Positions 2,155 to 52,454 of a DNA stretch of 64,000 nucleotides are shown one piece after another. Every line of letters starts with the position of its first letter. The first letter of the stretch is position 1. The stretch comes from an uncultured Marinobacter sp. (GTDB lineage: Bacteria > Pseudomonadota > Gammaproteobacteria > Pseudomonadales > Oleiphilaceae), in assembly GCF_947259545.1 (NCBI RefSeq), contig NZ_CAMYMK010000003.1:57469-121468 (forward strand). Direction: 5' to 3'. The translations under genes were made by a program, and so were the position numbers. The notes below the pieces were generated by a model. It saw only the letters and a program-made list of their open reading frames with translations. It was not told the origin of the DNA and ran no database searches.

Positions 2155-2259
2155 CGGACGGGTATCCCCTTTCAAAACACGCTCCTTCGGCCCATCCATG
2201 GGGCGCTTGGGCTCCGCCATCCATGGCTCCGCACAGTTTTGAAAGGGGATACCCATCCG
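2155..2259 (+). repeat. Variable-stem cloverleaf repeat, copy 1
   Basis: 24-bp inverted arms (CGGACGGGTATCCCCTTTCAAAAC, 1 mismatch) around core ACGCTCCTTCGGCCCATCCATGGGGCGCTTGGGCTCCGCCATCCATGGCTCCGCACA. Confidence 0.9.
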
Positions 2260-2357
2260 ACGCTTCGAGCCTGTGCGTGCCTGCTCTAATAAATTGACTT
2301 TTTCGGGCCCAGCCCAGCGTTCTAACACTGCACCTGTTGGCCATTGCACAAAGCTCG

Positions 2358-2475
2358 GGGCGCCTGTCAGGTATAGGTGTCCAAAACCGTGCGGAGCCAT
2401 GGATGGCGGAGCCCGAGCGTCACAGGGATGTGCCGTAAGGAGCGTGTTTTGGACACCTATACCTGACAGGTGCCC
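2358..2475 (-). repeat. Variable-stem cloverleaf repeat, copy 2 (opposite orientation to copy 1)
   Basis: About 30-bp arms GGGCGCCTGTCAGGTATAGGTGTCCAAAAC / GTTTTGGACACCTATACCTGACAGGTGCCC; same core in reverse complement. Confidence 0.9.
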
Positions 2476-2503
2476 TCCACCCAGGTTTCAGGCAATCACA
2501 GCT

Positions 2504-3685
2504 TTAGGCAACTTCGAACAATCCCGCAGCACCCATACCAGTGCCTACGCACATAGTCACGACGACGTATTTAACGCCACGGCGCTTGCCTTCGATCAGG
2601 GCGTGGCCAACGAGGCGTGAGCCGGTAGTGCCGTAGGGGTGGCCGACTGCGATGGCGCCGCCGTTGACGTTGAGGCGGTCCATCGGGATGCCGAGTTTGC
2701 GCTGGCAGTAGAGCACCTGAACGGCGAAGGCTTCGTTGAGTTCCCACAGGCCGATGTCGTCGACGGTCAGGCCGGCGCGCTTGAGCAGTTTGGGAACGGC
2801 GAAGACCGGGCCGATGCCCATTTCGTCGGGCTCACAACCGGCAACCGCGAAACCACGGAAGATACCCAGCGGGGTAGCGCCGCGCTGTTCGGCCACCTTG
2901 CTGTCCATCAGCACACAGGCCGAAGCACCGTCGGAGAACTGGCTGGCGTTGCCGGCGGTGACCACGCCGCCTTCCATTGCCGAGCGGATCTTGGTGACGC
3001 CTTCCAGGTTGGTGCCCGGGCGGATGCCTTCGTCCTGGCTGACGGTGACTTCCTGGCTGCTGAGCTGGCCGGTGGCCTTGTCGGCGACGCCCATGGTGGT
3101 GGTGATGGGCACGATTTCGTCGTCGAACTTGCCGTCTTCCCGGGCTTTGGCGGCCAGGGTCTGACTGCGAACGCCGTACTCGTCCATGTCTTCTTTCTTG
3201 ATGTCGTAACGCTTGGCGACCGTCTCAGCGGTATCCAGCATCGACCAGTAGAGTTCCGGCTTGTTCTTGGCCAGCCAGGGTTCCATGAAGTAGTTCTGGT
3301 TGACGTTGGCTTGCACGGTGGAGATGGATTCAACACCACCTGCGACCATCACCGGCACTCGGTCCACGGCAATGTGGTGGGCCGCCATGGCAATCGCCTG
3401 CAGGCCGGACGAGCAGAAGCGGTTGATGGTGGCGCCGGCCACGGACACTGGCAGACCGGCACGGATGGCGCCCATGCGGGCCACGTCGTTACCGGTGGAG
3501 CCTTCGGGCAGGGCGCAGCCCATCAGCACGTCTTCGATTTCGTTGGGGTCGACTTTCGAGCGCTCGACCGCGTGCTGGATGGCGTGACCGGCCAAGGTGG
3601 CGCCGTGGGTCATGTTCAGGCCGCCGCGCCAAGATTTGGCCAGGGGCGTGCGGGCGGTGGATACGATGACAACATCATTGGACAT
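2504..3685 (-). CDS. Acetyl-CoA C-acyltransferase (thiolase), PimB-like
   Basis: [36 protein letters not shown] thiolase motifs. Confidence 0.95.
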
Positions 3686-3758
3686 AACAATTCTCCTCAG
3701 GTCGGGGCTGCGGGCCTTCGATAAGGGATAGGCAGCCCCGGATCAATTCGTGGACCGG

Positions 3759-5855
3759 TTATTTAGCGTCGAAACCCTTGCCTTCTTCAGCGCGCTTGGC
3801 CAGCAGCGCCGCCGGCTTCCAGAAGCCTGGCTGGGTGTGGCGGTCTTCGGTGAAGGCCTGCATGGCGCGAACCACGTTGGGCAGGCCAACCTCTTCCGCG
3901 TAATGCATGGGGCCGCCACGGAATACCGGGAAGCCGTAACCGGTCAGGTACACCATGTCGATGTCGGAGGCGCGCTGGGCGATGCCTTCGTCCAGAATCT
4001 GGGCGCCTTCGTTGACCAGGGCGTAGACACAGCGCTCAACGATTTCCTGGTTGCTGATCTTGCGGGGGGTGATGCCCAGTTCGGCACGCACGTCGTCCAC
4101 CACCTTGTCCACTTCTGGATCGTGCAGGGCGTTGCGGTTGCCTGGCTCGTAGCGGTAGAAACCAGCGCCGGTCTTCTGGCCGTAACGGCCCATTTCGCAC
4201 AGGCGGTCAGCGACGACCATCTTCACCATGTCCGGGTTTTCTTCATACTGGCGCTTGCGGATGGCCCAGCCGATGTCGCCGCCGGCCAGGTCGGCCATGC
4301 GCAGCGGGCCCATGGCAAAGCCGAACTTCTCGATGGCCTTGTCGATCTGCTGAACGCTGGCGCCTTCTTCCAGCATCAGCAGAGCTTCGCGCTGATACTG
4401 GTTGATCATGCGGTTGCCAATAAAACCGTCACACACGCCGGACACCACGGCGGTCTTTTTGATCGCCTTGGCCAGCTTCATGGCGGTGGCCAGTACGTCC
4501 TTGGCGGTCTTCTCGCCGCGCACCACTTCCAGCAGCTTCATGATGTTGGCGGGGCTGAAGAAGTGCAGGCCGATGACGTCTTCCGGGCGCTTGGTGAAGC
4601 TGGCGATCTTGTTCAGATCGAGGGTGGAGGTGTTGGAGGCCAGGATGGCGCCCTGTTTGCAGACTTCGTCCAGCTTCTCGAACACGGACTGCTTCACGCC
4701 CATTTCTTCAAATACCGCTTCGATCACCAGGTCGACGTCGCTCAGGTCGTCATAGGTGAGGGACGGGGTGAGCAGCGCCATCTTGGCCTTGGCGTCGTCC
4801 TCACTCATGCGGCCTTTCTTGACCCGGCCTTCGTAGACTTTCTGGATGGCTGCCACGCCGCGGTCCAGACCTTCCTGCTTCATCTCTACCAGTGTTACCG
4901 GGATGCCGGCGTTGAGGAAGTTGATGCTGATACCGGTACCCATGGTGCCACCGCCGATCACACCGACGGACTTGATGTCACGCACCGGAGTATCGGAGGG
5001 CACATCGGCAATCTTGCTGGTCAGGCGCTCGGAGAAAAACGCGTGGCGCAGGGCGCGGGATTCCGGGGTCTGCATCAGGTTCACAAAGGCTTCGCGTTCG
5101 ACCTCCATACCCTTGTCAAAAGGCATGGTCACAGCGGCCTTTACCGCGTCCACGCACTTCAGCGGGGCCGGGTAGTTCTTTGCCATGGCACCTACGGTGT
5201 TACGGGTGAACATGAAGAAGCCTTCCGGATTGGGGTGCTTGGCCTTCAGGTCCCGCACTTTCTTCAGTGGCAGGTTTTCATTGGCGACCTTGGTGGCGTA
5301 GGCAATGGCGGCATCCTGCAGCTCACCCTCCACCAGCTCATCAAACAGGACGCTGCCCTTGAACTGTTTGGCGGGCACGGCGCTGCCGGACACAATCATG
5401 TTCAGGGCGTGTTCGGCGCCGATCACCCGGGGCAGACGCTGGGTGCCGCCGGCGCCCGGCAGCAGGCCCAGTTTCACTTCCGGCAGGGCAATCTGGGCAT
5501 CGGGTTTGGCGATGCGGTAATGGCAACCCAGGGCGAGTTCCAGACCGCCACCCATGCAGGCCCCGCTGATGGCGGCAATGACCGGCTTGCGGCTGCTTTC
5601 CACATAGTTGATGACGGTGTTCAGGTTGGGTTCGGCGGTGGCTTTGGAGGTGCCGAACTCGCTGATGTCGGCGCCGCCGGAGAAAGCGCGGTCGGAGCCG
5701 ATCAGCACAACAGCCTTCACCGCGTCATCGGCTTCCGCCTGGCGGATGCCGTTCACAATGCCCTGGCGCAGGGCCAGGCCCAGGCCGTTGACGGGCGGGT
5801 TGTCGAGTCGGATAACGGCAATGGCGCCGTTGAGATCGTAATGGGCGGTACTCAT
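3759..5855 (-). CDS. Enoyl-CoA hydratase / 3-hydroxyacyl-CoA dehydrogenase multifunctional enzyme, PimF-like
   Basis: Crotonase N-terminus ([34 protein letters not shown]), GVIGGGTMG Rossmann motif, GLHFFSPA; start MSTAHYDL at 5855. Confidence 0.95.
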
Positions 5856-5919
5856 TTGGGCAGCTCCCTGATACTGGAATCGGGTTGATCGTTGGTATGA
5901 AGACGCGCGTTGAAATCTC

Positions 5920-5958
5920 CATACACTGGTGTATTGTTGTTCCATACACTAATGTATG
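5920..5958. promoter_or_regulatory. Two tandem palindromic operators, likely bound by the adjacent TetR regulator
   Basis: CATACACTGGTGTATT (5920-5935) and CATACACTAATGTATG (5943-5958) in the divergent pimF/tetR intergenic region. Confidence 0.7.
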
Positions 5959-6046
5959 TTTTTGGTGGGGTCAACGGTTTCAAATTTGTGGGCTCCGTTA
6001 ATGTAGAATGCACCCGACATCGCCAGCAGCAGGATCTGACTACCGA

Positions 6047-6667
6047 ATGACTGACACCCGACAGCCCCGACGCACCAGCCGCAAGACGCCGGAAAAAGCG
6101 CAACTGACCCGCGACGACTGGCTGGATGCCGCCGCTGGCGAAGTGGCCGCGGGCGGTTTCAGTCATTTGCGGGTGCTGACACTGTCGAAAAAACTGGGTG
6201 TTACCCGGGGCAGTTTCTATTGGCACTTCAAGGACCATGAGGATCTGGTGGTCAGCTTTCTCGACCGCTGGCGGGACCGGCGGCTTCACGAACTTCAGTA
6301 CTGGAAGCCGAAAGGCGGGGATGTGGAAACTGAACTGAAGCAGATTCTGGAACTTCTGCTCACCGATGCCTCCCGTAACATTCGCCGCCTGCAGGTAGAG
6401 CTGGCGGTGCGGGATTTTGCCCGCCGCAACGACTATGCCGCGGATGTGGTGACGGAGGTGGACGAAGCACGGATCAATCAGAACTGTGAACTGTATGAGC
6501 GTCTGAGCAGTGATCCCCAGCGAATCCGCGACCTGTCACTGCTGATGTACGTGGCCACCATAGGATCCCAGGTGGTGCTGACGGGCAAGAAGGGGGATGC
6601 CGAAACCATCCGCCGGGTGGAAGACCTGATGGCACGCCTGGCGCTGGGGCAGCGTGATGACGACTAG
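6047..6667 (+). CDS. TetR/AcrR family transcriptional regulator
   Basis: LTRDDWLDAA...LSKKLGVTRGSFYWHFKD helix-turn-helix. Confidence 0.93.
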   Translation: MTDTRQPRRTSRKTPEKAQLTRDDWLDAAAGEVAAGGFSHLRVLTLSKKLGVTRGSFYWHFKDHEDLVVSFLDRWRDRRLHELQYWKPKGGDVETELKQILELLLTDASRNIRRLQVELAVRDFARRNDYAADVVTEVDEARINQNCELYERLSSDPQRIRDLSLLMYVATIGSQVVLTGKKGDAETIRRVEDLMARLALGQRDDD

Positions 6668-7478
6668 ATGGCTGGCCCTGCTGATGCTTGGCGCCTGCAT
6701 TGGCTTTGTTCAGGCCGCCCCGGCAGCCGACAGTGCTTGCATGGACGGGGCGGAAACGGAGCTGGAGCGGCTTTACTGCCAGGTTGTCCGCGAAGGTGGA
6801 GGTGCCGGCTTGCCCTCCCCAGCGGATTTCAAGCGCAACGATCCGCAGATTCAGGCGTTGCTGTTGCGCCGCCCCGCCGGGCGTCTGGGGCTGGAGGTGC
6901 CAGAGGTCGGTGCTGCGGCAGCGCCAGAGCCACCACCTTCGCAGGCTGATCCCGAAACCGCCGGTTCAGAGCCTGAAGATGCATCGCAACCCCGGGGATA
7001 TTTGTCTGAGTGCCAACTTCAGGGCCAACGCATTACCTGCCCGCAACGCCGTTTCGATCTGGTGACAAACCAGCACAACAGCGAACTGACCGACGGTGTT
7101 CTGGCGCCGGACAACCGCCTCGGGCTTGGTCCGTTCAACGGCGACCGGAATGACGAGGAGGCAGTGCGGCGCTATCTGTCAGATGCCTACGATCGCTATA
7201 TCCCCAAAATGGTGGACATCGGCCTGGGCGCCAGCACCATGAGTTTCACCGCCTTCCATAACGCATTCCACACCATGGAAGACGGTGGTGTCGATTTTGC
7301 CCGGCGCATGGAGCAAACCTTTTCCCTGCTCAAACAGGACAAGAAAAACCTCGCGGTAGATACCCGTTATCACGATGAGCTGCCGGGTGATCTTTCCCTG
7401 TGCATGGTGATTAACCGCGACATCATTGTGTGCGATAACGTGGGCACCAACTGGGTGTTTGTCAGCCCGTCCCGCTAG
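6654..7478 (+). CDS. Hypothetical exported protein
   Basis: Signal-peptide-like N-terminus (WLALLMLGACIGFVQAAPA), Cys pairs, Pro/Ala/Glu linker; overlaps tetR stop. Confidence 0.75.
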   Translation: MMTTRWLALLMLGACIGFVQAAPAADSACMDGAETELERLYCQVVREGGGAGLPSPADFKRNDPQIQALLLRRPAGRLGLEVPEVGAAAAPEPPPSQADPETAGSEPEDASQPRGYLSECQLQGQRITCPQRRFDLVTNQHNSELTDGVLAPDNRLGLGPFNGDRNDEEAVRRYLSDAYDRYIPKMVDIGLGASTMSFTAFHNAFHTMEDGGVDFARRMEQTFSLLKQDKKNLAVDTRYHDELPGDLSLCMVINRDIIVCDNVGTNWVFVSPSR

Positions 7479-7482
7479 GGTT

Positions 7483-8355: not shown

Positions 8356-8421
8356 TGCGGCACTCCATGTCAGTTAACGGTTCTGGCACGAAACCATAAA
8401 CGGCCCGTCGCGATGGCGCAA

Positions 8422-9333: not shown

Positions 9334-9446
9334 GGAGAAATTCCTTCTTCGTGCTCTGGTGGATGACAGCTTCAGGTTAGGGCTTGCGGGTTGCTAGTAG
9401 GAGTGTCATATTTGACATATAAAATGCGGAAAGGGCCATTATCAAA

Positions 9447-13252: not shown

Positions 13253-13358
13253 GCCGGGCGGGTAGGCCTCTCCGAAACACGCCTCAAGACGTCCCTGTTC
13301 GGCTCGGGCTCCGCCATCCCTGGCTCCGCACGGTTTCGGAGAGGCCTACCCGCCCGGC
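13253..13358 (+). repeat. Variable-stem cloverleaf repeat, copy 3
   Basis: Perfect 26-bp arms GCCGGGCGGGTAGGCCTCTCCGAAAC; core ...GGGCTCCGCCATCCCTGGCTCCGCACG. Confidence 0.9.
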
Positions 13359-13443: not shown

Positions 13444-14403
13444 ATGAAGCTGCCACCGCTGAAATCCCTGCCCGTCTTTGAAGCGGTTGCCCGTCTGAAC
13501 AGTTTTTCGCTGGCGGCGGACGAGTTGGCGGTCAGCCAGAGTGCGATCAGTCACCAGATCAAACAGCTGGAAACCTACCTTGGTGAAAAGCTGTTCTGGC
13601 GCAGTGGCCGCACGCTGACGCTGACCGACGAAGGCCGCCAGTATCTGGATGGCATCAGTTCGGCCTTGTTGCAGATTGAGCGGGTAAGTGAGCAGTTACT
13701 GGGTCACGAGGAATCGCGGTTGAGGCTGTCGGTGTTCAGTTCGTTTGCCGTGCGCTGGCTGGTGCCGCGGTTGCCGGATCTGCAGCGGGAACATCCACAA
13801 CTGGATCTGTCGCTGGAGATGAGCAGCGAAAACCCGGTGTTGTCCGACCGGGTGGCGGATTGTTTCATTACCATCAAGCCGAGCTCAGCGGCTTTCAGCT
13901 ATGAGCTGTTGTACACCGAGCGGCTGTTTCCGGTTTGTAGCCAGGATTATTGGCAGCGTATCCGCCGGGAATTGGGGCGGGATTCGGAGATTGAGGGGCG
14001 TGATGAGCCGGCTTTGTCACCGGAGGAGGTGTCCCGATTTCCGCTCCTTTCCACCCACAGCATTTTTGACAAAGCTGCCGGTGACTGGGAAGCATGGTAC
14101 CGGGCGGTGTCTCAGAGAATTCCGGGCACGGCTCGTCTCCAACATTTCAGTCATATGTTGTTGGCCCTGGAGGCGGCACGTTTCCATCAGGGCATCGCGT
14201 TGACCAACGATTACATGCTGAGTACACGGAAGGATTCGGGGGATTTTGTTCGGTTGCCCTGCCACCCGGTGATGACCGGTGACAAGTTCTATTTCGCCTG
14301 GAAAACCAGCCGCCGCCGCGAAAAGGGGATTCAGTTGTTGCGGCGTTGGCTGGTGGGTGAGGCCATTCAAGGTGGTTTAAGAAGCGAGGATGAAGACACC
14401 TGA
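13444..14403 (+). CDS. LysR family regulator, GcvA-like
   Basis: MKLPPLKSLPVFEAVARLNSFSLAADELAVSQSAISHQIKQLE. Confidence 0.93.
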   Translation: MKLPPLKSLPVFEAVARLNSFSLAADELAVSQSAISHQIKQLETYLGEKLFWRSGRTLTLTDEGRQYLDGISSALLQIERVSEQLLGHEESRLRLSVFSSFAVRWLVPRLPDLQREHPQLDLSLEMSSENPVLSDRVADCFITIKPSSAAFSYELLYTERLFPVCSQDYWQRIRRELGRDSEIEGRDEPALSPEEVSRFPLLSTHSIFDKAAGDWEAWYRAVSQRIPGTARLQHFSHMLLALEAARFHQGIALTNDYMLSTRKDSGDFVRLPCHPVMTGDKFYFAWKTSRRREKGIQLLRRWLVGEAIQGGLRSEDEDT

Positions 14404-14481
14404 TCTTACAGGGCGCCACCTGGGGAAGAATGGGAAATTTCCCAGGTGGCGACGGATCCGCATGTCAGAATGGTTTCCTGA

Positions 14482-24657: not shown

Positions 24658-24772
24658 GAAAGAGGTTGGGAGGCTGCTGTCAAAACACGCTCCTTCGGCA
24701 CATCCATGTGGCGCTTGGGCTCCGCCATCCATGGCTCCGCACAGTTTTGACAGCAGCCTCCCAACCTCTTTC
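24658..24772 (+). repeat. Variable-stem cloverleaf repeat, copy 4
   Basis: Perfect 29-bp arms GAAAGAGGTTGGGAGGCTGCTGTCAAAAC; core nearly identical to copy 1. Confidence 0.9.
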
Positions 24773-27358: not shown

Positions 27359-27546
27359 ATCGGCCAGAGTGGCACTCCCCAAAACACGCTCAAGCTCCCG
27401 CAAGCGGGTCCGGCCAGCAATCGCAGATTGCTGTCGCTCAGCTGCACATGAAGCTACGCTTCATAAACGTTTGCTTCGCCCATGTGGCGCTTGGGCTCCG
27501 CCATCCCTGGCTCCGCACAGTTTTGGGGAGTGCCACTCTGGCCGAT
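27359..27546 (+). repeat. Variable-stem cloverleaf repeat, copy 5, with about 80-bp insert of mini-hairpins
   Basis: Perfect 27-bp arms ATCGGCCAGAGTGGCACTCCCCAAAAC; insert carries CCCGCAAGCGGG, CAGCAATC-GCA-GATTGCTG, ATGAAGC-TAC-GCTTCAT. Confidence 0.9.
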
Positions 27547-28853: not shown

Positions 28854-28917
28854 GTGGGGTAAGGGGTCACAAACGTTCAAGGAAGCCACGGTTCCTGTTT
28901 GTGACCCCTTACCCCAC
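28854..28917. repeat. Long perfect hairpin, possibly a short relative of the cloverleaf repeat
   Basis: 21-bp arms GTGGGGTAAGGGGTCACAAAC / GTTTGTGACCCCTTACCCCAC with the same inner AAAC...GTTT boundary. Confidence 0.7.
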
Positions 28918-30031: not shown

Positions 30032-30703
30032 ATGACGCTCAGACTCGCATTCGACGTATACGGCACACTGGTCGACCCGATGGGCATGGCGGAGCTGTTG
30101 GCGCAGGACGCCGGCGAAAGCGCACAGGCTGTTAGTGCCCTGTGGCGGGAGAAGCAGCTGGAGTTCTCCTTTCGCAAAGGCCTGATGCGGGTCTATGAGG
30201 ACTTCGGTGTTTGTACTCGTCAGGCCCTGCGGTATGCCATGGCCACTCACCAACTGCCGCTGGCCGGGGATCGTGAGGATGAGTTGATGGCCGCGTATCT
30301 GTCCCTGCCGGCGTTTGATGATGCGTTGCCTGCCCTGAAAGCACTGAAAGGCCGTTATCCGCTGTTCGCATTCTCTAACGGAAGCTACCCCGCCCTGGAA
30401 AAAGTGCTGGGTTATAACAATTTGCTGGACCAGTTCGAAGGCCTGGTTTCCGTTGATGATATCAAGAGTTTCAAACCCGACCCTGCCGTGTATGCCTATG
30501 CCAGAAGGGCAACGGGAGCCTGGGACGAGCCGTTGTGTCTGGTATCGAGTAATGCCTGGGACGTGATTGGCGCACGAGCCGCCGGTTTAAAAGCGGTTTG
30601 GGTGCAGAGAGATATCAGCAAAGTCTTTGAAGACTGGGGCATAGAACCGTCTGCGGTAATACACAGTCTCTCCGAGTTACGCGAGGCCCTAAAGCATCTC
30701 TAA
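30032..30703 (+). CDS. L-2-haloacid dehalogenase (HAD type II)
   Basis: AFDVYGTLVD, FSNG, SFKPDPAVY, VSSNAWDVIGA. Confidence 0.9.
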   Translation: MTLRLAFDVYGTLVDPMGMAELLAQDAGESAQAVSALWREKQLEFSFRKGLMRVYEDFGVCTRQALRYAMATHQLPLAGDREDELMAAYLSLPAFDDALPALKALKGRYPLFAFSNGSYPALEKVLGYNNLLDQFEGLVSVDDIKSFKPDPAVYAYARRATGAWDEPLCLVSSNAWDVIGARAAGLKAVWVQRDISKVFEDWGIEPSAVIHSLSELREALKHL

Positions 30704-30826
30704 CGCCAGTGGATGAATGCTACCTAATGGATGGAATTTGAGAGGCAATTGTGGGAGTTTGCCCTACCGCGACATCAGTTCGCGGTAGGGCTGAGAGGGG
30801 ACAGTGAATATCCCTTGGTTACTAAA

Positions 30827-32836
30827 TTAGCGGGTCACTTCGATAAGAACGGCGATACCCAGTTCGTCCGGATCACTGCTGTCACTAGGCTGCCAGTGCT
30901 CGGTGAATACGCCCAGACTCGCGTCTTCGTTAAAGAAGCCTTCGAGCACATTGACGCCGTCTCCGCTACCGTCGTTAAGTTCGATGGTGGCGGCTCCATT
31001 GTTGGCGATTGCGGCGGTGATGTCTCCGGTCACCTCCTCACGGGTGCCTTCCAGATTACCGCCCAGCCCCTGCTTGGCAACTGCCGAGATCTTGCCGCCA
31101 AACGAGCCCGCGGTTTCAGAGTCCATGGTAATGAAGCTGTTGAACTGGGTGGCGAACAGCTCAAATTCGCTGGTGCCATTGCTGGCACCGTCCATGTACA
31201 TGGACATCAGCATGACCCGGTAGGTCTTTCCGCTGACGCTCACGCCATTGGTCGGTAGCTTGACCATCAGGGTCTTTTCGAAGTCGGCAAAATTGTCGCT
31301 CTGGCCGTCAGATTCCGCGAAGGCGATAAAGTCGAAGGTGTCGTTCACGAAACCGTCCGACGCAGAGCCTCCGGCTGCTGTGATGTCGCCATCAGAACTG
31401 ACAGTGATGCTGAGGTTTGACTCGGCAATGACTTCCGGTGCGCTGTATGCGGTACCAGTGTCGCTCAGTAAAAGTTCGTGGCCGCTGCCTGCGTTATATT
31501 CAAACGTGCCGTCGCCGTTGAACGACAGGGTGTTGGTTTCGGTAGCGAGTGTGACCGGGCCAAGCATTTCAAGATTGCTGCTGATATAGACGCGGCCGAA
31601 GTTGCCATTGAGGTCCGCCGCAGTCATGTTGCTGGGTTTGCGGGCCAGCACTTCCAGGGCGCGATTGACTTCATCGCCGCGGGGGTCGTTGGGGTCCAAT
31701 GCGTCCTTATTGCCATCACCATCCGTGTCGACAGTGCCATATTCAACAGCTGCTTCCTGCGAAAGCAGGAAAAACAGGCCTTTGTCGCTGACTTGTTGGA
31801 AATTGAAGGTCAGGGGCGGTCGCCGCTGCCCCAGGTCGGGGTGGTCGTCGTAAATTTCTTCTTCGAATTCGCCTTCAATAGACAGGATGCCACTGTTTGT
31901 AAAAGTTGCGGGGAACGTCTCGTTCAATGTTTCACTGCCAACGAAGTACCAGAGACCGCTGGAATCCACAGTGGAGCCGTTCAGCCCCGCGTCAGCCAAG
32001 TCTTCGGTTCCCAATGTAATACTGACGGTTCCATCCCCGCCATCGGAGAGTTCAATTTGCGCGGCCCATATCTCGCCGAACAGGGTGCCAAAGCCGCTAC
32101 TATTGCTGTCATCCATGCTGATGCCGAACGCGGAGTTGGCGTAGGCTCCTGCAATTGTGGAAATATCCCCCGGGTCGGCAGAAATAACCGCAATTTCGCT
32201 TTCCACCAGTTCGCCCACTTCCGCTTCCAGAACTGCGAGCATTTCGTCCAGATTGGCCCCGGCGGTGAGATCAAACTCTTCGACCTTGCCGCCCAGCTTA
32301 ACGACGTCGGTGGCAACAAGCTGGTCCAGGTCGGTGCCTTGCTCAATAAACTTGCGCAGCACGAATTCGGATACCGGGCTGATGTCAACGGCCTGCTCGA
32401 CCACCTGGGCCCGCATTTGGGCGTTGTTGGTTCCGGTGATCCGTACAATCAGGTTGCCCGCCAGATTGACGCCCTGGGGCAGTATCAACTCGTAGTCCCC
32501 GGTTGTTGAGGTGACGGATTCGGCCAGAACGTCACCGATCTGGTTGCCATCATCATCCACACGGATCAGCTCAACGGTTGCTCCCCCTACCGGTTCGAGG
32601 CCAGTAATCGCCGCGGCAACGGGTGAGATGATGAAACTTAATGCGATGTCAAAGGGACTTGCAGGTTCCAGATAAGCGACCGCACCTGCAGGTGCTGAAG
32701 CGGATCCACTTATCGTGGTACCGGATGTGTCATCTGTCTGCGAATCGGATGATCCGCCACTACCGCCACTGCAACCGGTTATAGCCACAGTGGAAGTCAG
32801 CGCACCGATTAATGCCAGTGTTTTTAGATTGTGCAT
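30827..32836 (-). CDS. Large acidic lipoprotein of unknown function
   Basis: Lipobox VAITG-C followed by Gly/Ser linker; D/S/G/T-rich beta-type body; DTDGDGNKD motif. Confidence 0.8.
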   Translation of the reverse strand: MHNLKTLALIGALTSTVAITGCSGGSGGSSDSQTDDTSGTTISGSASAPAGAVAYLEPASPFDIALSFIISPVAAAITGLEPVGGATVELIRVDDDGNQIGDVLAESVTSTTGDYELILPQGVNLAGNLIVRITGTNNAQMRAQVVEQAVDISPVSEFVLRKFIEQGTDLDQLVATDVVKLGGKVEEFDLTAGANLDEMLAVLEAEVGELVESEIAVISADPGDISTIAGAYANSAFGISMDDSNSSGFGTLFGEIWAAQIELSDGGDGTVSITLGTEDLADAGLNGSTVDSSGLWYFVGSETLNETFPATFTNSGILSIEGEFEEEIYDDHPDLGQRRPPLTFNFQQVSDKGLFFLLSQEAAVEYGTVDTDGDGNKDALDPNDPRGDEVNRALEVLARKPSNMTAADLNGNFGRVYISSNLEMLGPVTLATETNTLSFNGDGTFEYNAGSGHELLLSDTGTAYSAPEVIAESNLSITVSSDGDITAAGGSASDGFVNDTFDFIAFAESDGQSDNFADFEKTLMVKLPTNGVSVSGKTYRVMLMSMYMDGASNGTSEFELFATQFNSFITMDSETAGSFGGKISAVAKQGLGGNLEGTREEVTGDITAAIANNGAATIELNDGSGDGVNVLEGFFNEDASLGVFTEHWQPSDSSDPDELGIAVLIEVTR

Positions 32837-32914
32837 GGGAGCTCCTCGTTACGATCAATGACCGAATAGCGATCAGGAGCCTAGATAAGTAGCAAACAGT
32901 GATACCTGAATTCT

Positions 32915-32930
32915 TCCCCCGTATGGGGGA
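32915..32930. promoter_or_regulatory. Palindromic operator, probable site for the divergent LuxR-type regulator
   Basis: TCCCCC-GTAT-GGGGGA about 80 bp upstream of the lipoprotein start. Confidence 0.55.
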
Positions 32931-33105
32931 GAGGGGCATTGCGTTTCTTGCAGGTCGTGTTCCGGGCAGTGACCATATGGGACCAGAGAGTGAAAAACAT
33001 TGTTAAATATGCCAGTCAGTTCAGGCCATCCCGGAATTGGTATGTTCAATAACCGTTATATTACCTGAGTCGATGACATTTGGTTGATTCGGGAGAGGTG
33101 GACCT

Positions 33106-34266
33106 TTGGACATAAACGCGGGCGAGTGTTTCTTTGAATCGGATCATCATGAACTGATCAGCCTGCTATATGATGGGATCACCAATAAGCAGGGGTTCTT
33201 TCCCTTTTTGCGAAAATTTGTGGAGGTGTTTGAAGGGCACAGTGCGAGTTTTTCCATTTACGATACCCTTGAAAACTCTCTTTTGGGGGCCTGGACTCTC
33301 AATATCCCCGACGAGGCTTTTGAGTTCTACGCTGAGCATGTATCTCATCGGGATGTGCTGGTTCAGAAGGCATTGGAAGTGCGCAAACAGGGGCAGCTGC
33401 GGTTTGTCGCCAGTAACCTGGATCTTGGTCCGGACATAAAACGAATTCGCAAGGAAACCCGGGTCGAGGAGTGGCTGGAAAGCTACGGTGCTGATGAGGC
33501 AGCCGGAGCGATCGCTTTTCTCGACGGTCACTATATGAACTTCTTTGGTATGCAGCGGTCTGCTGCCCAGCCGGCTTTTACACGGGAAGAGTTGAGTCTG
33601 TTCAACCGGTTTTTACCCCACGTTATTCGATCCGTAGATCTGTATACCCGCATGCTACGGGGTGGGGTGCAGCCAACTGCCGAACAGCTTGCTCTTAATC
33701 ATGTGGATCGTGGCCTTCTGGTAGTTGATACCACCTACCGGGTGGTCTTCAAGAATGCCCTGGCGGATGAAATACTGGAAAAATCTGTAGGGTTTAAACT
33801 CAATGAAAAAAGTGGCGTGGTGTCGTATCAGGATCCGGCCGGTGCCAATCAGTTCTCCTGTTTCCTGACCCGGGCGGTTAACGCGTCACTTGAAGGCAGG
33901 GATATTGAAGATGGGGTTTTCCACGTTCGACGGCGCAACATTAACCTGACGGTGGTTATCTCGGCCCTGCAAGGGGCAGACGACAGTGTCGCAGAGCGGG
34001 GTGGGGTGCTCATCAGCATTTATGACTGGAACCATCAGCCGGCGCTCAATACCCAACTGGTTAAGACTCTGTTTGGGTTAACCGAAGCGGAACTGCGAGT
34101 TGCTGAAGCGTTACTCTGTGGTAACAGTCTGGTGGAAATAGCAGATACTCTCAGTCGCTCCCGGGAAACGGTAAAAACACATTTGAACGCCCTTTTCCGT
34201 AAAACGGATACCCGTCGCCAAGGCGAATTGATTTCTTTGTTATCCCGCAGCAGTTTTTCATCCTGA
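33106..34266 (+). CDS. LuxR-type HTH regulator with GAF/PAS-like N-terminal regions
   Basis: C-terminal FGLTEAELRVAEALLCGNSLVEIADTLSRSRETVKTHLNALFRKTDTRRQGELI; TTG start with GGAGAGG RBS. Confidence 0.88.
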   Translation: MDINAGECFFESDHHELISLLYDGITNKQGFFPFLRKFVEVFEGHSASFSIYDTLENSLLGAWTLNIPDEAFEFYAEHVSHRDVLVQKALEVRKQGQLRFVASNLDLGPDIKRIRKETRVEEWLESYGADEAAGAIAFLDGHYMNFFGMQRSAAQPAFTREELSLFNRFLPHVIRSVDLYTRMLRGGVQPTAEQLALNHVDRGLLVVDTTYRVVFKNALADEILEKSVGFKLNEKSGVVSYQDPAGANQFSCFLTRAVNASLEGRDIEDGVFHVRRRNINLTVVISALQGADDSVAERGGVLISIYDWNHQPALNTQLVKTLFGLTEAELRVAEALLCGNSLVEIADTLSRSRETVKTHLNALFRKTDTRRQGELISLLSRSSFSS

Positions 34267-34866
34267 GCGCTGCAGCCCCCGCGTCATCAGGCTGATACTC
34301 TCATCCAGCATCCGTTTGCCCCTCAGCTCGTCGTATCCGCTGCAAATTTCCAGCAGAACGGCGCCATGCACCGCTCCCCAGAGGGTCCGGACAGTGGCAT
34401 CGGGGTCGGCGGTGACACGGAACCGGCGCTCCGCCATGCCCGTCTTGAGGAAGTTGGCAAACAGTTCGAAGGCGGTCGACCTGGACAAGACCCCGAACAG
34501 GTCGGCCTCAATGGCCATAGGGGTGCTGGCGGCCAGGAACAGGGCACGATCAGAGCAGGCCAGTTCACGGTAGATGTGGGCGGCCTGTCGCAGCATAGCC
34601 TCTGGCGGTGTCTCTGGCAGGGCGGCCATCAGCCGTCGTTGCCACTCCTCCACCCAGGCCTCGAAGAGCGCGCGGATCAGGCCGGGTTTGTCTTTGAACA
34701 GGTATTCGACGGTGGGCCGTGGCGTATTGCTCTTTTTCGCCAGAGTCTCCAGACTGAGTGCGGCCATCCCGTCATTACGGACAATGTCGCGGGCAATGGC
34801 AACGAGTTGTTTACGTTGGGCCTGAGGGCTAGCGTCGGTGTTTGTTTCCTCTGACTTCGGGGGCAT
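34258..34866 (-). CDS. TetR/AcrR family regulator (WHG-like C-terminus)
   Basis: RDIVRNDGMAALSLETLAKK HTH; LWGAVHG. Confidence 0.8.
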   Translation of the reverse strand: MPPKSEETNTDASPQAQRKQLVAIARDIVRNDGMAALSLETLAKKSNTPRPTVEYLFKDKPGLIRALFEAWVEEWQRRLMAALPETPPEAMLRQAAHIYRELACSDRALFLAASTPMAIEADLFGVLSRSTAFELFANFLKTGMAERRFRVTADPDATVRTLWGAVHGAVLLEICSGYDELRGKRMLDESISLMTRGLQRSG

Positions 34867-34951
34867 AGATTCCTTCCTTTTCGGTCAGGGTGCTTTCGGC
34901 TTTTCCTTCCTTAATAGTAGCACCCTGCCGGCCAGCCCGGTTGATGAAAAC

Positions 34952-36115
34952 TCAGTCAGATCGCTCGGCCAACCATTCCGCCAATTCCAGCCAGCTTTCC
35001 CGAGGTGCCTTGCTACCGGCCAGAATGCCCATATGCCCCCCCGGCACTACCCGGAATGTTCTGTCGGCTGAGCTGACGTGATCCATCACCCGCTTCGCCG
35101 CACCGGGTGTGGCCAAAGTGTCCTCCTGACCAGCGATGGCCAGTAAGTTGGCGTTCACATTCTCCAGGCGGGCAACATCTTCACCGATCTGAATCTCGCC
35201 CTTCGACAGCTGATTGTCGATCCAGATCCGCACCACGGTGTCCTGAATAATGCCGCCGGGGTAAGCCACCATCCGGTCCAGAAACGCCGACGTTGTAGCG
35301 TGGTTACTGACGAACTCCCGGTCACCCAGTCGTACAATCAACTCCCAGTAACCCATCACGCTGCCAATCGGATTGGTCAGCTTGAAACCAATCGTATTGG
35401 CCCAGCCCGGTGTGTGGAACCAGTGGGGTTTGACATTGTGGATGCGAAAACCGGTGCGTTTTCGCACAAAGTCCGCCACATCCGCGACACGCTGGTACAT
35501 CAGACCCATCAGACCGGACGCATGACTATCGATGGGCAAACCCAGAACCACGGCGTTGCGGATGTGCTGATCCTTGCTCAGAGCCGAGTAGAACAGCGTA
35601 AACATGCCGCCCATGCTCCAGCCATGCAGCGACAATTCCTGCTCTCCGCTGTGTTCCCGCACCCGGTTCAGATACGCTGGCAGCAACTCCGCCACGTAGG
35701 TGTGCAGATTGTAGTGACTGTGCTCGCGGGTCGGGATACCCCAGTCGATCAGGTACACCTCAAATCCCTTCGCTCGCAGGAAACGCACCAGACTGCGCTG
35801 GGGAAACAGGTCATAGATCAGCATATTCACCGCCAGCGGCGGCACTATGACAATCGGTGTTTTGTGTGCGGTGCGTTCCACCGTGATGGTTTCGCCATCC
35901 AGCTCGATAAAATCCTCCGCCAGCGGCGGATAATACCGCAGACTGACCAGGCCATCGGTGTGCAGTGTTTCAAACGGCGTTTGTCCCGCCTGCACCAGGC
36001 TGGCGGCGCGGAATACCCGGTCAAAGGCATTGCCCGCATAAAGAGCCGTTTGCCGGGTGAGTCCCGACGCTTTGTCAGCCGCGGATTTGAAGAGGTTTGG
36101 CATGGGAATGTCCAT
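34952..36115 (-). CDS. PHA synthase (PhaC class III)-like alpha/beta hydrolase with Ser in the lipase box
   Basis: TPIVIVPPL...IYDLFPQRSLVRFL..GFEVYLIDWG; HGWSMGG; EDTLA; GGHMG. Confidence 0.8.
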   Translation of the reverse strand: MDIPMPNLFKSAADKASGLTRQTALYAGNAFDRVFRAASLVQAGQTPFETLHTDGLVSLRYYPPLAEDFIELDGETITVERTAHKTPIVIVPPLAVNMLIYDLFPQRSLVRFLRAKGFEVYLIDWGIPTREHSHYNLHTYVAELLPAYLNRVREHSGEQELSLHGWSMGGMFTLFYSALSKDQHIRNAVVLGLPIDSHASGLMGLMYQRVADVADFVRKRTGFRIHNVKPHWFHTPGWANTIGFKLTNPIGSVMGYWELIVRLGDREFVSNHATTSAFLDRMVAYPGGIIQDTVVRIWIDNQLSKGEIQIGEDVARLENVNANLLAIAGQEDTLATPGAAKRVMDHVSSADRTFRVVPGGHMGILAGSKAPRESWLELAEWLAERSD

Positions 36116-42747: not shown

Positions 42748-42752
42748 GTTAA

Positions 42753-44108: not shown

Positions 44109-44388
44109 CGTTCCGTCCGCTGTGCTGCTGTTTATTCCGAGCGCGTCAAATTTCATGACGAGGTTCTCTTGTGGCATTACAGATACGTATGAATAGCGGT
44201 TACCGAATCCCCTAAATAGGGTATATGACCGGCTTGGCCTTAGAGGGCAGGAGGTTTACTTTCTGAATTTGATGGAGTTTTCTGAATTGGCGAAAAGGGA
44301 AAAGTGTGTGCTTAAGTGTCAAGCTTTGTAAAATCTGGGTGTGGCTGATGTTTGTCGCGAGGAAATGGGATAGGTGGGGCCGAAGTGA

Positions 44389-44592: not shown

Positions 44593-44652
44593 GGCGCACC
44601 TCCTTTTTAAGGTATTGCCTAGTTAATACGGTGCGCCTGTGCCTTTGGTTTT

Positions 44653-46638: not shown

Positions 46639-46722
46639 GAACGGGACCTGGCTGGTAAAAATGAATGATGGGGCGGAGTATAACGGTTCTCGGTCCACGC
46701 GTCAGATAGCAGACTTCCGATA

Positions 46723-47397: not shown

Positions 47398-47536
47398 GGT
47401 GTCTCCAATCGGTAATACGACTAATTTGCAATTACAGTCTTAATTGGAACATCATGCATCACCATGGAATAACCATCAATCTTCCCGGCATGGATGTGTT
47501 CCAGCCGGTGGTCTTTTGTTGTTTAAGGAGAGCTCG

Positions 47537-48586
47537 ATGAACAATCAGAAACTGAAGCTGTGGACTGGTATCGGTATGGCAACGTTGCTGGCCAGTTCCG
47601 GCGCCGTGGCCGATGATCATAAAAGCGGCCATCACGACGACATGATGACGTCCGGCTCCCATGGCGGAGAGGGAGGAGAACACCATGGTGGTGAAGGTGG
47701 AGAACGCCACGGTGGAGAGGGCGGTGAGCACCACGGAGGCGAAGGCGGAGAAAATCACGGTGGTGAAGGCGGCGAACAGCACGGTGGTGAAGGTGGTGAA
47801 CACCATGGCGGCGAAGGCGGTGAGCAGCATGGAGGAGAGGCTGGCGCCGCTTTTAGTTACTTCGCTGCTGGCGGCGAAGGTGGTGAAGGCGGAGAAGGCG
47901 GAGAAGGCGGCGAAGGCGGCGAAGCGGGTGGTTCCGTGTCAGCGGTTGAGTCCGACGGCGCCTATGTCGCGATGCTTAAGATGATGCAGGGGCATCTGAT
48001 GGCGGCGCGGGAGTTGATCAAGTCAGGCGAGGTCGCCGAGGGCCGGCCGCATCTGACCCATCCCTGGATTGAGGTTTACCCCATGGCCGAAGCGGGACTG
48101 AAACACCGCGGCCAGAAAGAGCTGGGCGGTCGCCTGCAGACCCTGGCGGAAAAAGCGGGGCAGGTTGAGAACTGGGGCGACATCAACCAGGAGTTTCAGG
48201 CGGCCTGGGTCGCGGCCGAGGAAGCATTGAACTCAGTCGGTGGTGGTGAGCCGAGCGCTGCAACCGTCTCAAAGGTTGCGTTGTCGCTCACCAAGCAGGC
48301 GGTGCTGGAGTATGACGAGGCACTCGACGGTGAGCAGTTTGTAGCGGTTCACGAATACCAGGACGGCCGTGGCTTCGTGCTTTCAGCCCGTGATTATCTG
48401 GATCGCCATAAGGCTGTTCTGAAGAAACAGAATAAGGAAGCCTGGCGTGACGTAGGCAAAGCCCTGGATGAATTGCAGAAGGCCTGGCCGACAGCGGTCC
48501 CACCGGAGCAGCCAGTGATTCCGGTCGCTGATCTGTACTCTGCCCAGGCGAGGCTGGAGCTTGCGTTGGCTCCTTACCTCTACTGA
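47537..48586 (+). CDS. Secreted His/Gly/Glu-repeat protein with helical C-terminal domain
   Basis: AAGGAG RBS; signal peptide; (HGGEGGEx) repeats; GHL...HPWIEVY and HEYQDGRGF motifs. Confidence 0.85.
   Translation: MNNQKLKLWTGIGMATLLASSGAVADDHKSGHHDDMMTSGSHGGEGGEHHGGEGGERHGGEGGEHHGGEGGENHGGEGGEQHGGEGGEHHGGEGGEQHGGEAGAAFSYFAAGGEGGEGGEGGEGGEGGEAGGSVSAVESDGAYVAMLKMMQGHLMAARELIKSGEVAEGRPHLTHPWIEVYPMAEAGLKHRGQKELGGRLQTLAEKAGQVENWGDINQEFQAAWVAAEEALNSVGGGEPSAATVSKVALSLTKQAVLEYDEALDGEQFVAVHEYQDGRGFVLSARDYLDRHKAVLKKQNKEAWRDVGKALDELQKAWPTAVPPEQPVIPVADLYSAQARLELALAPYLY
47660..47932 (+). repeat. Coding tandem repeats: 24-bp unit x about 8 (HGGEGGEx), then 9-bp unit (GGE) x about 6
   Basis: Units start at 47660 with 24-bp period to 47828; second tract at 47870-47932. 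Confidence 0.92.
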
Positions 48587-48596
48587 TCCTGATACG

Positions 48597-48622
48597 GGGC
48601 CGGGGCCTATAGGTCCCGGCCC
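48597..48622. terminator. Hairpin between convergent genes
   Basis: GGGCCGGGGCCT-AT-AGGTCCCGGCCC. Confidence 0.55.
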
Positions 48623-48632
48623 GGGGTTTCAG

Positions 48633-49094
48633 TTAATTATATTGCGAAAATACCCGAGTCTGACCGGTTTCGTTGAACAGGATGACCTTGTAGTGGTCTT
48701 TCCGGTCGCCCACTTCCATACCCGGTGAGCCAAGGGGCATGCCGGGCACGCTTAGCCCTGTGGCTTGCGGCGCTTCCGTGATGAGGCGCTGGATATCGCT
48801 GGCGGGCACATGACCTTCGATGACGTAGTCACCCACGAAAGCCGTGTGGCAACTGGCCAGCGCCGGGGTCAGGCCGGCGTCGATTTTGATTTGGTTGAGG
48901 TCGGTGGTCTCTGTAACGTCGACGTCAAAGCCGTTTTCTTCCAGGTGATCGACCCAGTCGCTGCAGCAGCCGCAGGAAGGGGATTTGTAGACGTGGATGT
49001 TTTCAGCGTCGCCTTCTGCCAGCAACGGGGTGCTGATCATGGTGCTGAGGCCGAAGGCCGCAGCAAGGCCGAAAGCTTTTTTGCGCAGGGTCAT
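48633..49094 (-). CDS. DUF411 (CopG-like) periplasmic metal-binding protein
   Basis: YKSPSCGCCSDW, SCHTA, IEGHVPA, VPGMPLGSPGME. Confidence 0.92.
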   Translation of the reverse strand: MTLRKKAFGLAAAFGLSTMISTPLLAEGDAENIHVYKSPSCGCCSDWVDHLEENGFDVDVTETTDLNQIKIDAGLTPALASCHTAFVGDYVIEGHVPASDIQRLITEAPQATGLSVPGMPLGSPGMEVGDRKDHYKVILFNETGQTRVFSQYN

Positions 49095-49223
49095 GTCTTT
49101 TTCCTCAGTGATGATGGCTGTGATCGTTGTTAGAGGCGCCGGTGGATGATGGCGACAGCCAGAACCACCAGACGATGGCAGCCATCAGTAACAGTCCTCC
49201 GGAATTGACCAGAAGTGTGCCCA

Positions 49224-51833
49224 TCAGTTCCGCTCCTCTTGCTGATTGTCGATGTTTTTGTGACTGCTCCGGAACAACCGCAGGCGGTTGGCGTTGGAGA
49301 CCACAGTGACCGATGACAGGGACATGGCGGCGCCGGCGAGGATCGGGCTCATCAGTATTCCCCAGACAGGGTAAAGCAGGCCGGCGGCCACCGGAATACC
49401 CATTGTGTTGTATACAAACGCCCCAAACAGGTTCTGGTGAATGTTTTTCACTGTTGCGCGGGAGATCTCGATGGCATCGGGCACGCCGTGCAGGGAGCCG
49501 CGCATCAGCGTAATGCCTGCACTTTCGATGGCCACGTCCGTGCCGGTACCAATGGCGAAGCCAACATCAGCGGCCGCCAGGGCCGGCGCATCGTTGATGC
49601 CGTCGCCGACCATGGCGACGGTATAGCCCTTGCCCCGCATTTCACTCACCACCTCGGCCTTGTCTTCCGGCAATACCTCCGCCCGGTAATCGTCGATCCC
49701 AGCCTTGTTAGCGATGGCTCTGGCGGTGGCGTCGACATCGCCGGTGACCATCATCACCCGGATGCCGGCATCGTGCAGGCGCTGTATCGCGGCCTGAGAA
49801 TCCGGTTTGATGGCGTCGGCAACACCAATGACACCGAGGACCTCGTCGCCCAATGCCAGGAACAGCGGGGTGCCCGCCTCTTCGGCAATGGAACCGGCGG
49901 CAGCGGTCAGCTCATCCAGAGCCAGGCCTTCATTTTCCAGCCAGCGCCGGTTGCCCAGGCGCAGGGGGTTGCCATTGAACTCGCCTTTGACGCCTTTGCC
50001 GTTCAGTGCTTCAAAGCCGGACACTTTTTCAGCCTCGACGCCTTCCTCCTTCGCCTTCGCCAGAATCGCTTCCGCGAGCGGGTGTTCCGAGTGCTGTTCC
50101 AGCCCGGCCGCCAGAGCCAACAGGCGCTGTTCATCACCATCGCTGGCATGCACCCGGGTCACCGCCGGATGACCTTCGGTAATGGTGCCGGTCTTGTCCA
50201 GAATCACCAGATCCAGCTTGCCGGCGGTCTGCAGGGCGTCACCCTGACGGATCAATGCCCCGTATTCTGCGGCTTTGCCAACCCCGACCATCACCGACAT
50301 GGGTGTGGCCAGACCCAGAGCACAGGGGCAGGCGATAATTAGCACTGTGGTAGCCGCTACCATCATGTGGACCACCGCAGGTTCCGGCCCGACGTTGTAC
50401 CAGACCAGTGCCGCCACCACGGCAATCAGCATGACCGTGGGCACGAACACCGATGAGATCTTGTCAGCCAGTCGGCCAATGGCGGGTTTGGAACCCTGGG
50501 CTTTTTTTACCAGCTTGATGATCTGGGCCAGCGCGGTTTCGCTGCCGACCCGGGTGGCTTCGTAAATGATTGAACCGTGGGTGTTCAGTGTGCCGGCGGA
50601 GACCTCGTCGCCCTCTGATTTGCTTACCGGCATGGGCTCACCGGTCAGCATGCTCTCATCAATGCGGGTCGAGCCTTCGGCAATCACCCCGTCCACCGGC
50701 AGTTTCTCCCCGGGCCGGACCCGGATGTGATCGCCCTTGCGGACCTCCTCGACGGGAATATCCCGCTCTTCGCCATCACGAATCACCCGGGCGGTTTTCG
50801 CCCGCAGATCCAGTAAGCGGCGCACCGCTTCCGACGTCTTACCCTTGGCCCTCAACTCCAGCGCCTGGCCCAGATTGATCAGGCCGATGATCATCGCTGA
50901 GGCTTCAAAGTACACATGCCGCGCCATCTCCGGCAGGGCGCCGGGTATACTGGCTACCACAATCGAGTAGAGCCAGGCGGTGCCGGTGCCCAGGGCAATC
51001 AGCGTATCCATGTTGGCGTTATGATGCCGAAACGCCTTCCAGGCCCCGGTATAGAAGTGCCCGCCGGTGGCGGCCATGACCACCAGAGTCAGCACCCCCA
51101 GCCCGAGCCAGATGCCCTGATTGGCATCGGTCACCATCATGGTGCCAAAGCCCATGCCCCAGACCATCAGGCCCAGGCCCAGACTCAGGCTGATCGCCAT
51201 CTTGATCAGCAGGGTTTTGTACTGCTTTCGGTCTGCTTCCTGCTTCCGATCGTCCGCCTCGTCCTCATCTTCAATCACACGGGCGCCATAGCCGGCGCTT
51301 TCCACGGCCTTCACCAGCGCCTGGGGGTCTGCGTCACCCGTGGCCGTCGCGGTGTTGTCCGCCAGATTCATATGGGCATGGCTGATACCACCCACCGACA
51401 TCAGCGCCTTCTCAATAGTATTCACGCAGGAGGCGCAGGTAGCACCGGTTACCGACAGATGAACCTGCCCATTTCCAGCAGCGGAAGGCTCAGCCTGAGC
51501 GCTATCAGAGACCGTCTCGGCCGCATCGTCGAAGGGATGATCCGAGTGATCATCGTCGTTTTTGCTATGTTCAGCTTTGGCGGCACAGCAACTGGCGGGC
51601 TCCGGAGTATCTTCGAATGGCTCCGCCGGATAACCCGTCTCGGTCACAATCCGCGCCGCTTCAGCGGCATCCACGCCCTCTGGCAGGGCCACGGTCTGCT
51701 GTTCGAGATCCACTTCCACCAGGTCTGAATCGCCGGTCAGCGGTTCCAGAGCAGCTCGGATCTTCTTTACACAGCCCTGGCACGAGGCCCCGGAAATACT
51801 GAGTGTGGTCTGTAGTACTGGTGCGTCTGTCAT
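49224..51833 (-). CDS. copA: Cu(I)-translocating P1B-1 ATPase
   Basis: Two HMA domains (GASCQGC, GATCASC), [31 protein letters not shown] and MSLSS. Confidence 0.95.
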
Positions 51834-51839
51834 GGGCGG

Positions 51840-52283
51840 TTACTCCTCAACCTCGTTGGCTGCCCCGGCAGAGGGCGCAGGGTCTTCCCAGTGTTCGATC
51901 AACCGGCAAATGGTGTGTCCATCGGGCGAACCATCCGGCATGTTCTGCCAGGCCGCCATAGCCGCCGTCATCCGCTGGCGCAGCTCCTGCAGCTCACGAA
52001 TTTCCCGTTCCACCTCCGCCAGCCGCTGCTGAAAGACATCCCGTACCATCGGACAGGGCGAATGATGATCATCCGCCTGCTCCAGAATCTGCCGGATCTC
52101 CGGCAGCGAAAAGCCCAGCTGACGGGCCTTGCGGGCAAACCGCAGCCGCCGAAGATCCTCGGCATTGAACTGCTGATAGTTGTTGTCCGGATTGCGGGTC
52201 GGCTTCAACAGATTTTCCCGGGTATAGAACCGCACGGTATCCGGATTCACGCCGGCGGCTTCTGCAATGTCTTTGACTTTCAT
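51840..52283 (-). CDS. MerR family metal-responsive regulator
   Basis: MKVKDIAEAAGVNPDTVRFY, NNYQQF, ARQLGFSLPEI, SPCPMV, GHTICRLIE. Confidence 0.92.
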   Translation of the reverse strand: MKVKDIAEAAGVNPDTVRFYTRENLLKPTRNPDNNYQQFNAEDLRRLRFARKARQLGFSLPEIRQILEQADDHHSPCPMVRDVFQQRLAEVEREIRELQELRQRMTAAMAAWQNMPDGSPDGHTICRLIEHWEDPAPSAGAANEVEE

Positions 52284-52344
52284 AGCCTGTTTCCCACCCC
52301 GAAGTGAATAATGGTCAAAGAAATCCACGACTGAAGTAAGCGGA

Positions 52345-52454
52345 GTGTCAAGGCAGTAACGACTTTCGAAAATGCTCGTAGCCATGGATGGCGGAGAGCA
52401 AGCGTACAGGGACGTATTCACAGCGGTTTTCGGAAGTCGTTACTGCCTTGACAC
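52345..52454 (-). repeat. Variable-stem cloverleaf repeat, copy 6 (more diverged core)
   Basis: 28-bp arms GTGTCAAGGCAGTAACGACTTTCGAAAA with one wobble; core contains GCCATGGATGGCGGAG and ACAGGGACGTATTCACAGCGG. Confidence 0.85.

Follow-up and report, generated by a model that had tools for sequence, protein, structure and literature searches.

The closest described relative of the repeats considered here is the TwoAYGGAY RNA motif (Rfam RF01731), whose outer helix, P1, was reported to be "often very large (24 bp with only 2 mismatches)" (Weinberg et al. 2010, PMC2864571), and for which CsrA binding has been proposed (Gardner and Eldai 2015, PMC4333381). The repeats lie in a stretch of 64,000 nt from an uncultured Marinobacter sp. 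(contig NZ_CAMYMK010000003.1, positions 57,469 to 121,468 of the forward strand; hereafter the window), in which an earlier note, made from the letters alone, had drawn attention to six intergenic copies of a conserved core enclosed by long inverted repeats. All six are present where the note had placed them (Table 1), and each displays the arrangement it described, namely AAAC/core/GTTT with two CAT/CGT-CC-(A/C)TG mini-hairpins. The repeats constitute a Marinobacter subfamily of TwoAYGGAY. The note had left room for a match to a described Rfam family, and such a match was found; moreover, the unconserved arms, which it had taken for the opposite of what repetitive extragenic palindromes (REPs) and miniature inverted-repeat transposable elements (MITEs) display, are a known hallmark of this motif. 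The outcome is mostly one of classification: the repeats are members of a known RNA family, and of the two explanations that the note had offered, selection on a structured RNA is supported and the copying of a flank, including by a REP-associated tyrosine transposase (RAYT), is not.

A whole-genome scan of the source genome (G000; Marinobacter, 4.08 Mb, 57% G+C, 99% complete) with the RF01731 model gave 43 matches, all of them full-length (model positions 1-168) and all on one strand, and zero matches were obtained in 14 control genomes. The sense strand of the element is the reverse complement of the orientation in which the earlier note had written it. The scores call for some caution. The best match in the source genome reaches 44.3 bits and is the sole copy of the 43 above the gathering score of 43 bits, most genome copies score 23-42 bits, and those of the window reach about 31-39 bits where they are listed at all. 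Among themselves the copies are plainly homologous. At the gathering score Rfam returned no match in the window and no TwoAYGGAY match at 17 loci from other species; the weak RF01731 matches are visible only by E-value thresholds or in a whole-genome scan. Rfam places TwoAYGGAY in clan CL00106, which we take to be the Csr/Rsm small RNA (sRNA) clan.

The repeats share with the motif two hairpins with AYGGAY-type loops and a long, near-perfect P1 that varies by copy, as well as occurrence in Gammaproteobacteria at several copies per genome and alignment to the model at full length and on the same strand. In addition, hairpin 1 has a GGA/GGA internal loop, consistent with the tandem G-A pairs reported for the motif. 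They differ from it in lacking the model's inner junction helix and in having a hairpin 1 that reads GCGGAGCC-AUGGAU-GGCGGAG instead of forming a plain helix, and all six window copies fall below the gathering score. Loop 1 is AUGGAU or AGGGAU and loop 2 is A(U/G/C/A)GGA(U/C), with some second loops conforming to ARGGAY instead of AYGGAY. A whole-genome scan with the core counts 44 copies of the window subtype in the source genome, with cores of 52-58 nt and one exception of 134 nt. Within the window the 23-mer core word GGCTCCGCCATCCMTGGCTCCGC occurs 5 times versus 0.01 expected, the sixth copy being a diverged subtype.

At least three further TwoAYGGAY subtypes are present in the source genome (e.g. 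C2:418656-418763, C2:456124-456229 and C2:706895-707000), with hairpin-1 stems CAAAAACAUGGAUGUUUUUG, GGCCAAGGAUGGCC and GCAGCAGGGAUGCUGC and with other junctions (CCGGGAC/GTCCCGG, CGCGGAA/TTCCGCG). Three example copies of these subtypes were unmatched by RF01731 at E<=1, and some others are matched in the whole-genome scan. All subtypes together amount to roughly 65-70 elements in this genome.

P1 is kept paired in a strand-specific, RNA-like manner, as can be seen in two ways. First, the RNAalifold consensus of 90 copies from many Marinobacter species comprises 28 P1 pairs, hairpin 1 (GC-GGA-GCCA-UGGA-UGGC-GGA-GC) and hairpin 2 (e.g. (G)UACA-GGGA-UGUA), with compensatory change at 29 of the 39 predicted pairs and all four pair types at most P1 positions. 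Secondly, the arms in the source genome (25-32 bp) form Watson-Crick pairs at 1195 of 1239 positions, and the exceptions, read on the sense strand, are G.U in 38 cases versus A.C in 2. The ratio was 65:7 in 101 copies from other species, where both transition mismatch types (G.U, A.C) carried an equal penalty. Selection on a structured RNA or single-stranded DNA, the second alternative of the earlier note, is thus supported by covariation as well as by the strand-specific excess of G.U. The "cloverleaf" described there is a three-way junction. Overall, P1 is about 96-97% Watson-Crick paired, measures 27-30 bp in 87 of the 101 other-species copies, and ends sharply, no pairing having been found beyond it.

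At the distal arm positions the mean pairwise identity is 0.40, equal to the column-shuffle null, and this leaves no arm subfamilies; the arms are largely unrelated between copies, as had been claimed from the six in the window, and do not fall into a few conserved groups. Still, they are not random, as they display a weak G-rich profile: CTTTCCAAAAC lies beside the core, positions 17-19 read GGG, and G makes up 45% of the 5' arm. Beyond the 3' arm there is only a weak C-rich CCCCAA motif. A conserved outer inverted repeat suspected at first, TTGGAGT/ACTCCGA, was not upheld on testing.

Comparison across species shows that many of the copies are orthologous. The exact core was present in all 24 congeners searched (1-64 copies each) and was not found in sixteen other families of the same order. 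Ten sites were mapped by synteny in stretches from five species, with 70-90% identity to relatives; a strain near-identical to the source genome was sought via an identical flanking protein, and only a genome with 79-89% identity was found. Syntenic copies are shared by five or six species, and in orthologue pairs 174 arm positions had changed on both sides versus 32 on one side. At window position ~5980 the core has been inverted in place, lying on the plus strand in the related genome G014 and on the minus strand in G019, with arms 92% identical and the same rare core variant in both. The orientation differs between species at the sites designated F, H, I and J too, and at sites D and F orthologues that agree in their arms differ in the hairpin-2 module. 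Copies are missing from G000 at four syntenic sites that are filled in its relatives; at its empty sites C, E and H the insertion boundaries are imprecise, since the relatives are only 70-90% identical, and two of these sites hold another hairpin in G000.

Besides the site at 28854-28917 (see below), three places in the window are of this kind. At ~5940-6020 the copy of the relatives is missing, at ~14400-14480 a short GC-rich, terminator-like hairpin is found where relatives carry a copy, and at 30680-34975 the TwoAYGGAY site of the relatives is taken by 4.3 kb of sequence that they lack.

The earlier note had suspected similar elements in other gammaproteobacteria. With a covariance model trained on the Marinobacter copies, full-length homologues of 60-88 bits were found in 65 of 300 sampled Gammaproteobacteria, no more than 11 candidates being scored per genome, a ceiling that several genomes reached. 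In these homologues the loops are preserved, covariation is seen in the stem of hairpin 1, and every copy has a 28-bp P1 of its own. Outside this class, the 21-mer GCGGAGCCATGGATGGCGGAG recurs identically in elements of Planctomycetota metagenome-assembled genomes (loci L032-L042, L066-L071, L100 and L110). In these planctomycete elements the outer stems are likewise long, GC-rich and variable, a second GGA hairpin, GGCCUGGAGGGCC, is present, and the hairpin-1 module alone matches the Marinobacter model, at 20-30 bits.

The high-affinity site of CsrA/RsmA is CANGGAYG presented in a hairpin loop, and the consensus from systematic evolution of ligands by exponential enrichment (SELEX) is RUACARGGAUGU. 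On the sense strand the cores carry about two CANGGAYG motifs each (84 in 43 copies; 191 in 101), with zero on the antisense strand. In ten copies agreement with the SELEX consensus extends to 12/12 positions. Moreover, the two GGA loops are separated by 23-25 nt, a distance well suited to a single CsrA dimer, and the source genome has one csrA gene. Judging from these sequence features, CsrA binding is our best guess and the most likely function of the repeats, and we would give a probability of roughly 0.6 to the reading that the TwoAYGGAY RNA copies, with a 27-30-bp P1 maintained for pairing only and CsrA-like loops, are portable two-site CsrA-binding modules.

If transcribed on the sense strand, each copy folds into a P1 helix of 27-30 bp ending in AAAC/GUUU, topped by a three-way junction and two hairpins. 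According to this hypothesis it could serve as a decoy, or act in cis on any transcript that includes it in the sense orientation. P1 would be constrained only to pair and to hold its length, which would explain why the arms differ between copies, and the loops would be under selection for sequence. Most loci are old and common to several species, and their arms have drifted by paired, two-sided changes, for which either selection or correction of one arm of the inverted repeat against the other could be responsible.

Genomic context was classified for 133 copies with a purpose-written, codon-usage gene caller, giving 45 convergent, 35 tandem-sense, 36 tandem-antisense and 17 divergent contexts. 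Of the source genome's intergenic gaps of 120 nt or more, 9% are convergent, 52% tandem and 39% divergent, and consequently the copies favor gene 3' ends. In each context the G.U bias goes with the strand of the element itself (29:3, 18:2, 26:3 and 9:0). Element orientation was not linked to GC skew or replication strand (22 vs 21). Adjacent TwoAYGGAY copies stand head-to-head, 5' ends facing, in 10/10 pairs (e.g. window 2151-2475, C8:51638-51973 and C8:247243-247595), and at least 10 more such pairs occur in related genomes. The spacers of 44-125 nt are unconserved, and no promoter was recognized between head-to-head copies.

Table 1. TwoAYGGAY copies of the window and one hairpin of a second family (positions counted from the first letter of the window).
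Feature	Position	Strand	Description
Copy 1	2151-2263	-	28-bp P1, 57-nt core; left half of head-to-head doublet; RF01731 32.4 bits, full-length, minus strand
Copy 2	2358-2475	+	30-bp P1, 58-nt core; right half of the doublet; RF01731 31.1 bits, full-length, plus strand
Copy 3	13253-13358	-	26-bp perfect P1; sense orientation, 43 nt upstream of a minus-strand gene
Copy 4	24658-24772	-	29-bp perfect P1; divergent genes on either side; RF01731 38.7 bits
Copy 5	27359-27546	-	27-bp perfect P1; ~80 nt inserted in hairpin 2 (27395-27475)
Copy 6	52345-52454	+	Diverged core subtype GCUCGUAGCC...GGAGAGCAAG; 28-29-bp P1 with two U.G pairs; RF01731 37.3 bits
Second hairpin family	28854-28917		21-bp perfect G-rich arm, AAAC/GTTT junction, unrelated 22-nt core GTTCAAGGAAGCCACGGTTCCT

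The window copies differ in their histories among relatives. Copies 1 and 2 both have orthologues in G014 and G019. The orientation of copy 3 (site D) is constant across five species. G009 has the same arms without any change, and the copy in G019 has compensated arm changes and a different hairpin-2 module. The site of copy 4 is filled in most Marinobacter species, with minus orientation in G000, G005 and G014 and plus orientation in G009, G019, G022 and GN3S48. In copy 5 the insert abolishes the second GGA loop. Its orthologue in Marinobacter sp. GN3S48 (site G) has a normal core of 54 nt, with 4/4 arm differences compensated, and the insert is therefore derived and does not represent an ancestral, fuller form. 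The rare core subtype of copy 6 is found at the orthologous site in G022 also, in reversed orientation.

Other hairpin families share the genome. An inverted-repeat scan brought out, next to the further TwoAYGGAY subtypes, two unrelated small cores of 22-23 nt in arms of the same kind, unique, G-rich and 25-31 bp long. The hairpin at 28854-28917 occupies the site of a TwoAYGGAY element in five related species, and belongs to a second family with a core of 22-23 nt, GTTCAAGGAAGCCACGGTTCCT or ATTCAAAGAAGCCACGCTTCTCC, inside perfect, G-rich arms of 21-31 bp that are unique per copy. At least 10 copies exist in the genome, with 1 arm mismatch in 314 positions. A third family, of at least 16 copies (e.g. 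C2:284331-284411, C2:1043468-1043720 and C9:129524-129843), has the 23-nt core TTTAACTCGCTTTGCTCAGACAG and unique arms of 23-34 bp with A/T runs. Some of its copies form inverted pairs, and in contrast to TwoAYGGAY no G.T bias is seen among its arm mismatches. Rfam gave no match for either family other than spurious ones to microRNA precursors, from which it follows that long hairpins alone can give low E-values. An ordinary REP-like family with the conserved palindrome CCCCTCTCCCGCGAGGGGAGAGGGG is found at C2:453653-453754, C2:975205-978777 and C7:546164-546248, in a genome without a RAYT gene.

The proposal of CsrA-binding modules should be interpreted with some caution, since a number of observations weigh against it. 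Neither orientation is preferred in tandem contexts (35 sense, 36 antisense). No conserved sequence was found farther than ~10 nt outside P1, upstream included, and sigma-70-like promoters are not enriched upstream, with a match in 6 of 143 copies. G.T pairs are tolerated in single-stranded DNA too, and the G.U bias is consequently no proof of RNA. The CsrA model leaves unexplained that two unrelated small cores are set in the same unique-arm framework. The range of 1-64 copies between Marinobacter species looks like mobility and not like vertical descent, and at site J the arms have been replaced (identity 0.27-0.31) with the flanks still alignable (0.62-0.71), which is again mobility-like. 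Lastly, the term counts of a 2026 preprint (10.64898/2026.09.22.753630) are 52 for TwoAYGGAY, 14 for "reverse transcriptase" and 0 for CsrA.

Several of these points favor an alternative in which the repeat is a mobile DNA hairpin akin to MITEs or REPs. New copies would then originate by movement of nothing but the core with its inner AAAC/GTTT junction, the arms would come from inverted copying of a flank at the new site or from long palindromes already in place, and the fold would serve the element itself and not the host. The variable copy number and the arm replacement at site J are consistent with such an origin, as is a G-rich, unique-arm framework common to three unrelated core families. 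The same can be said of the enrichment between convergent genes (34% vs 9% of gaps) and depletion between divergent ones, of the constant head-to-head placement of adjacent copies (10/10), of the same-arm orthologues with different hairpin-2 modules at sites D and F, and of the four syntenic sites empty in G000, one of which holds a different core in a similar hairpin. However, we consider this explanation unlikely. The hallmarks of a MITE are lacking, as the arms are unique to each copy and no target-site duplication was detected, the longest direct repeat between flanks having a mean of 4.99 and the null likewise. No two copies have common arms, and so no recent copying of whole elements is visible. 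The arms have a position-specific profile unlike that of random flank, and many loci are orthologous across species with arm changes compensated. Nor does the source genome match Y1/RAYT (PF01797), for which 6 of 14 control genomes match, or reverse transcriptase (PF00078).

The same observations bear on the suggestion of the earlier note that one flank is duplicated in inverted form upon insertion, whether by template switching or by HUH/RAYT-type chemistry. With neither enzyme in the genome and no target-site duplication, with arms profiled unlike random flank, and with orthologues that share or co-vary their arms, flank copying is not supported and seems unlikely.

A broader proposal joins TwoAYGGAY with at least two unrelated small-core hairpin families of the same genome in an undescribed, transposase-less class of intergenic elements, each with a conserved core inside a ~28-bp, G-rich, locus-unique inverted repeat. 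Cores would flip and be exchanged, arms would be corrected against each other, and the fold would serve the element's own propagation via an RNA or single-strand intermediate, and not host regulation; we regard this as quite unlikely. A role at the level of DNA, in which the repeat is a cruciform or invertible switch, the core a site for a DNA-binding protein, and the arms a by-product of recombination or gene conversion, is very improbable: the in-place flip at ~5980 and the species-dependent orientation at sites F, H, I and J would fit it, as would some pairs with arms more alike than flanks, in keeping with arm-to-arm correction, but pure double-stranded DNA predicts equal G.T and A.C where 65:7 was observed, following the core strand, orientation is unrelated to replication strand (22 vs 21), and the loops match the site of an RNA-binding protein on one strand only.

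For TwoAYGGAY, an orphan motif ever since 2010, Marinobacter provides a clean data set, with ~44 copies per genome and hundreds across species, many of them orthologous. The data show strand-specific stem pairing whatever the direction of the neighboring genes, in-place core inversion, module exchange, and head-to-head adjacency. If the loops bind CsrA, as we favor, many marine Gammaproteobacteria would have in these scattered two-site modules, present by the dozen, a substantial and so far overlooked component of their Csr/Rsm network. If they do not, TwoAYGGAY would be a widespread repeat.

In conclusion, the repeats can be set beside three better-known systems. With the sRNAs CsrB, RsmY and RsmZ they share GGA in hairpin loops that fit the SELEX consensus. 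However, those sRNAs are single-copy, have GacA-dependent promoters, and carry 7-22 GGA sites, whereas here there are two loop sites in each of ~44-70 dispersed copies, no recognizable promoter, and an enclosing helix of 28 bp. Like the REP/REPIN-RAYT system, they are dispersed, intergenic, palindromic, enriched at gene 3' ends, and found as inverted doublets; but REPs keep the sequence of their palindrome and have a RAYT gene, whereas here the palindrome varies, the loop alone is conserved, and no Y1/RAYT is present. The attC sites of integrons resemble them in conserving structure over sequence, in strand-specific folding, and in AAC/GTT boxes. In attC, however, the boxes are outermost and the sites form arrays beside intI, whereas in the TwoAYGGAY repeats of Marinobacter it is the center that is conserved, and the copies are scattered.

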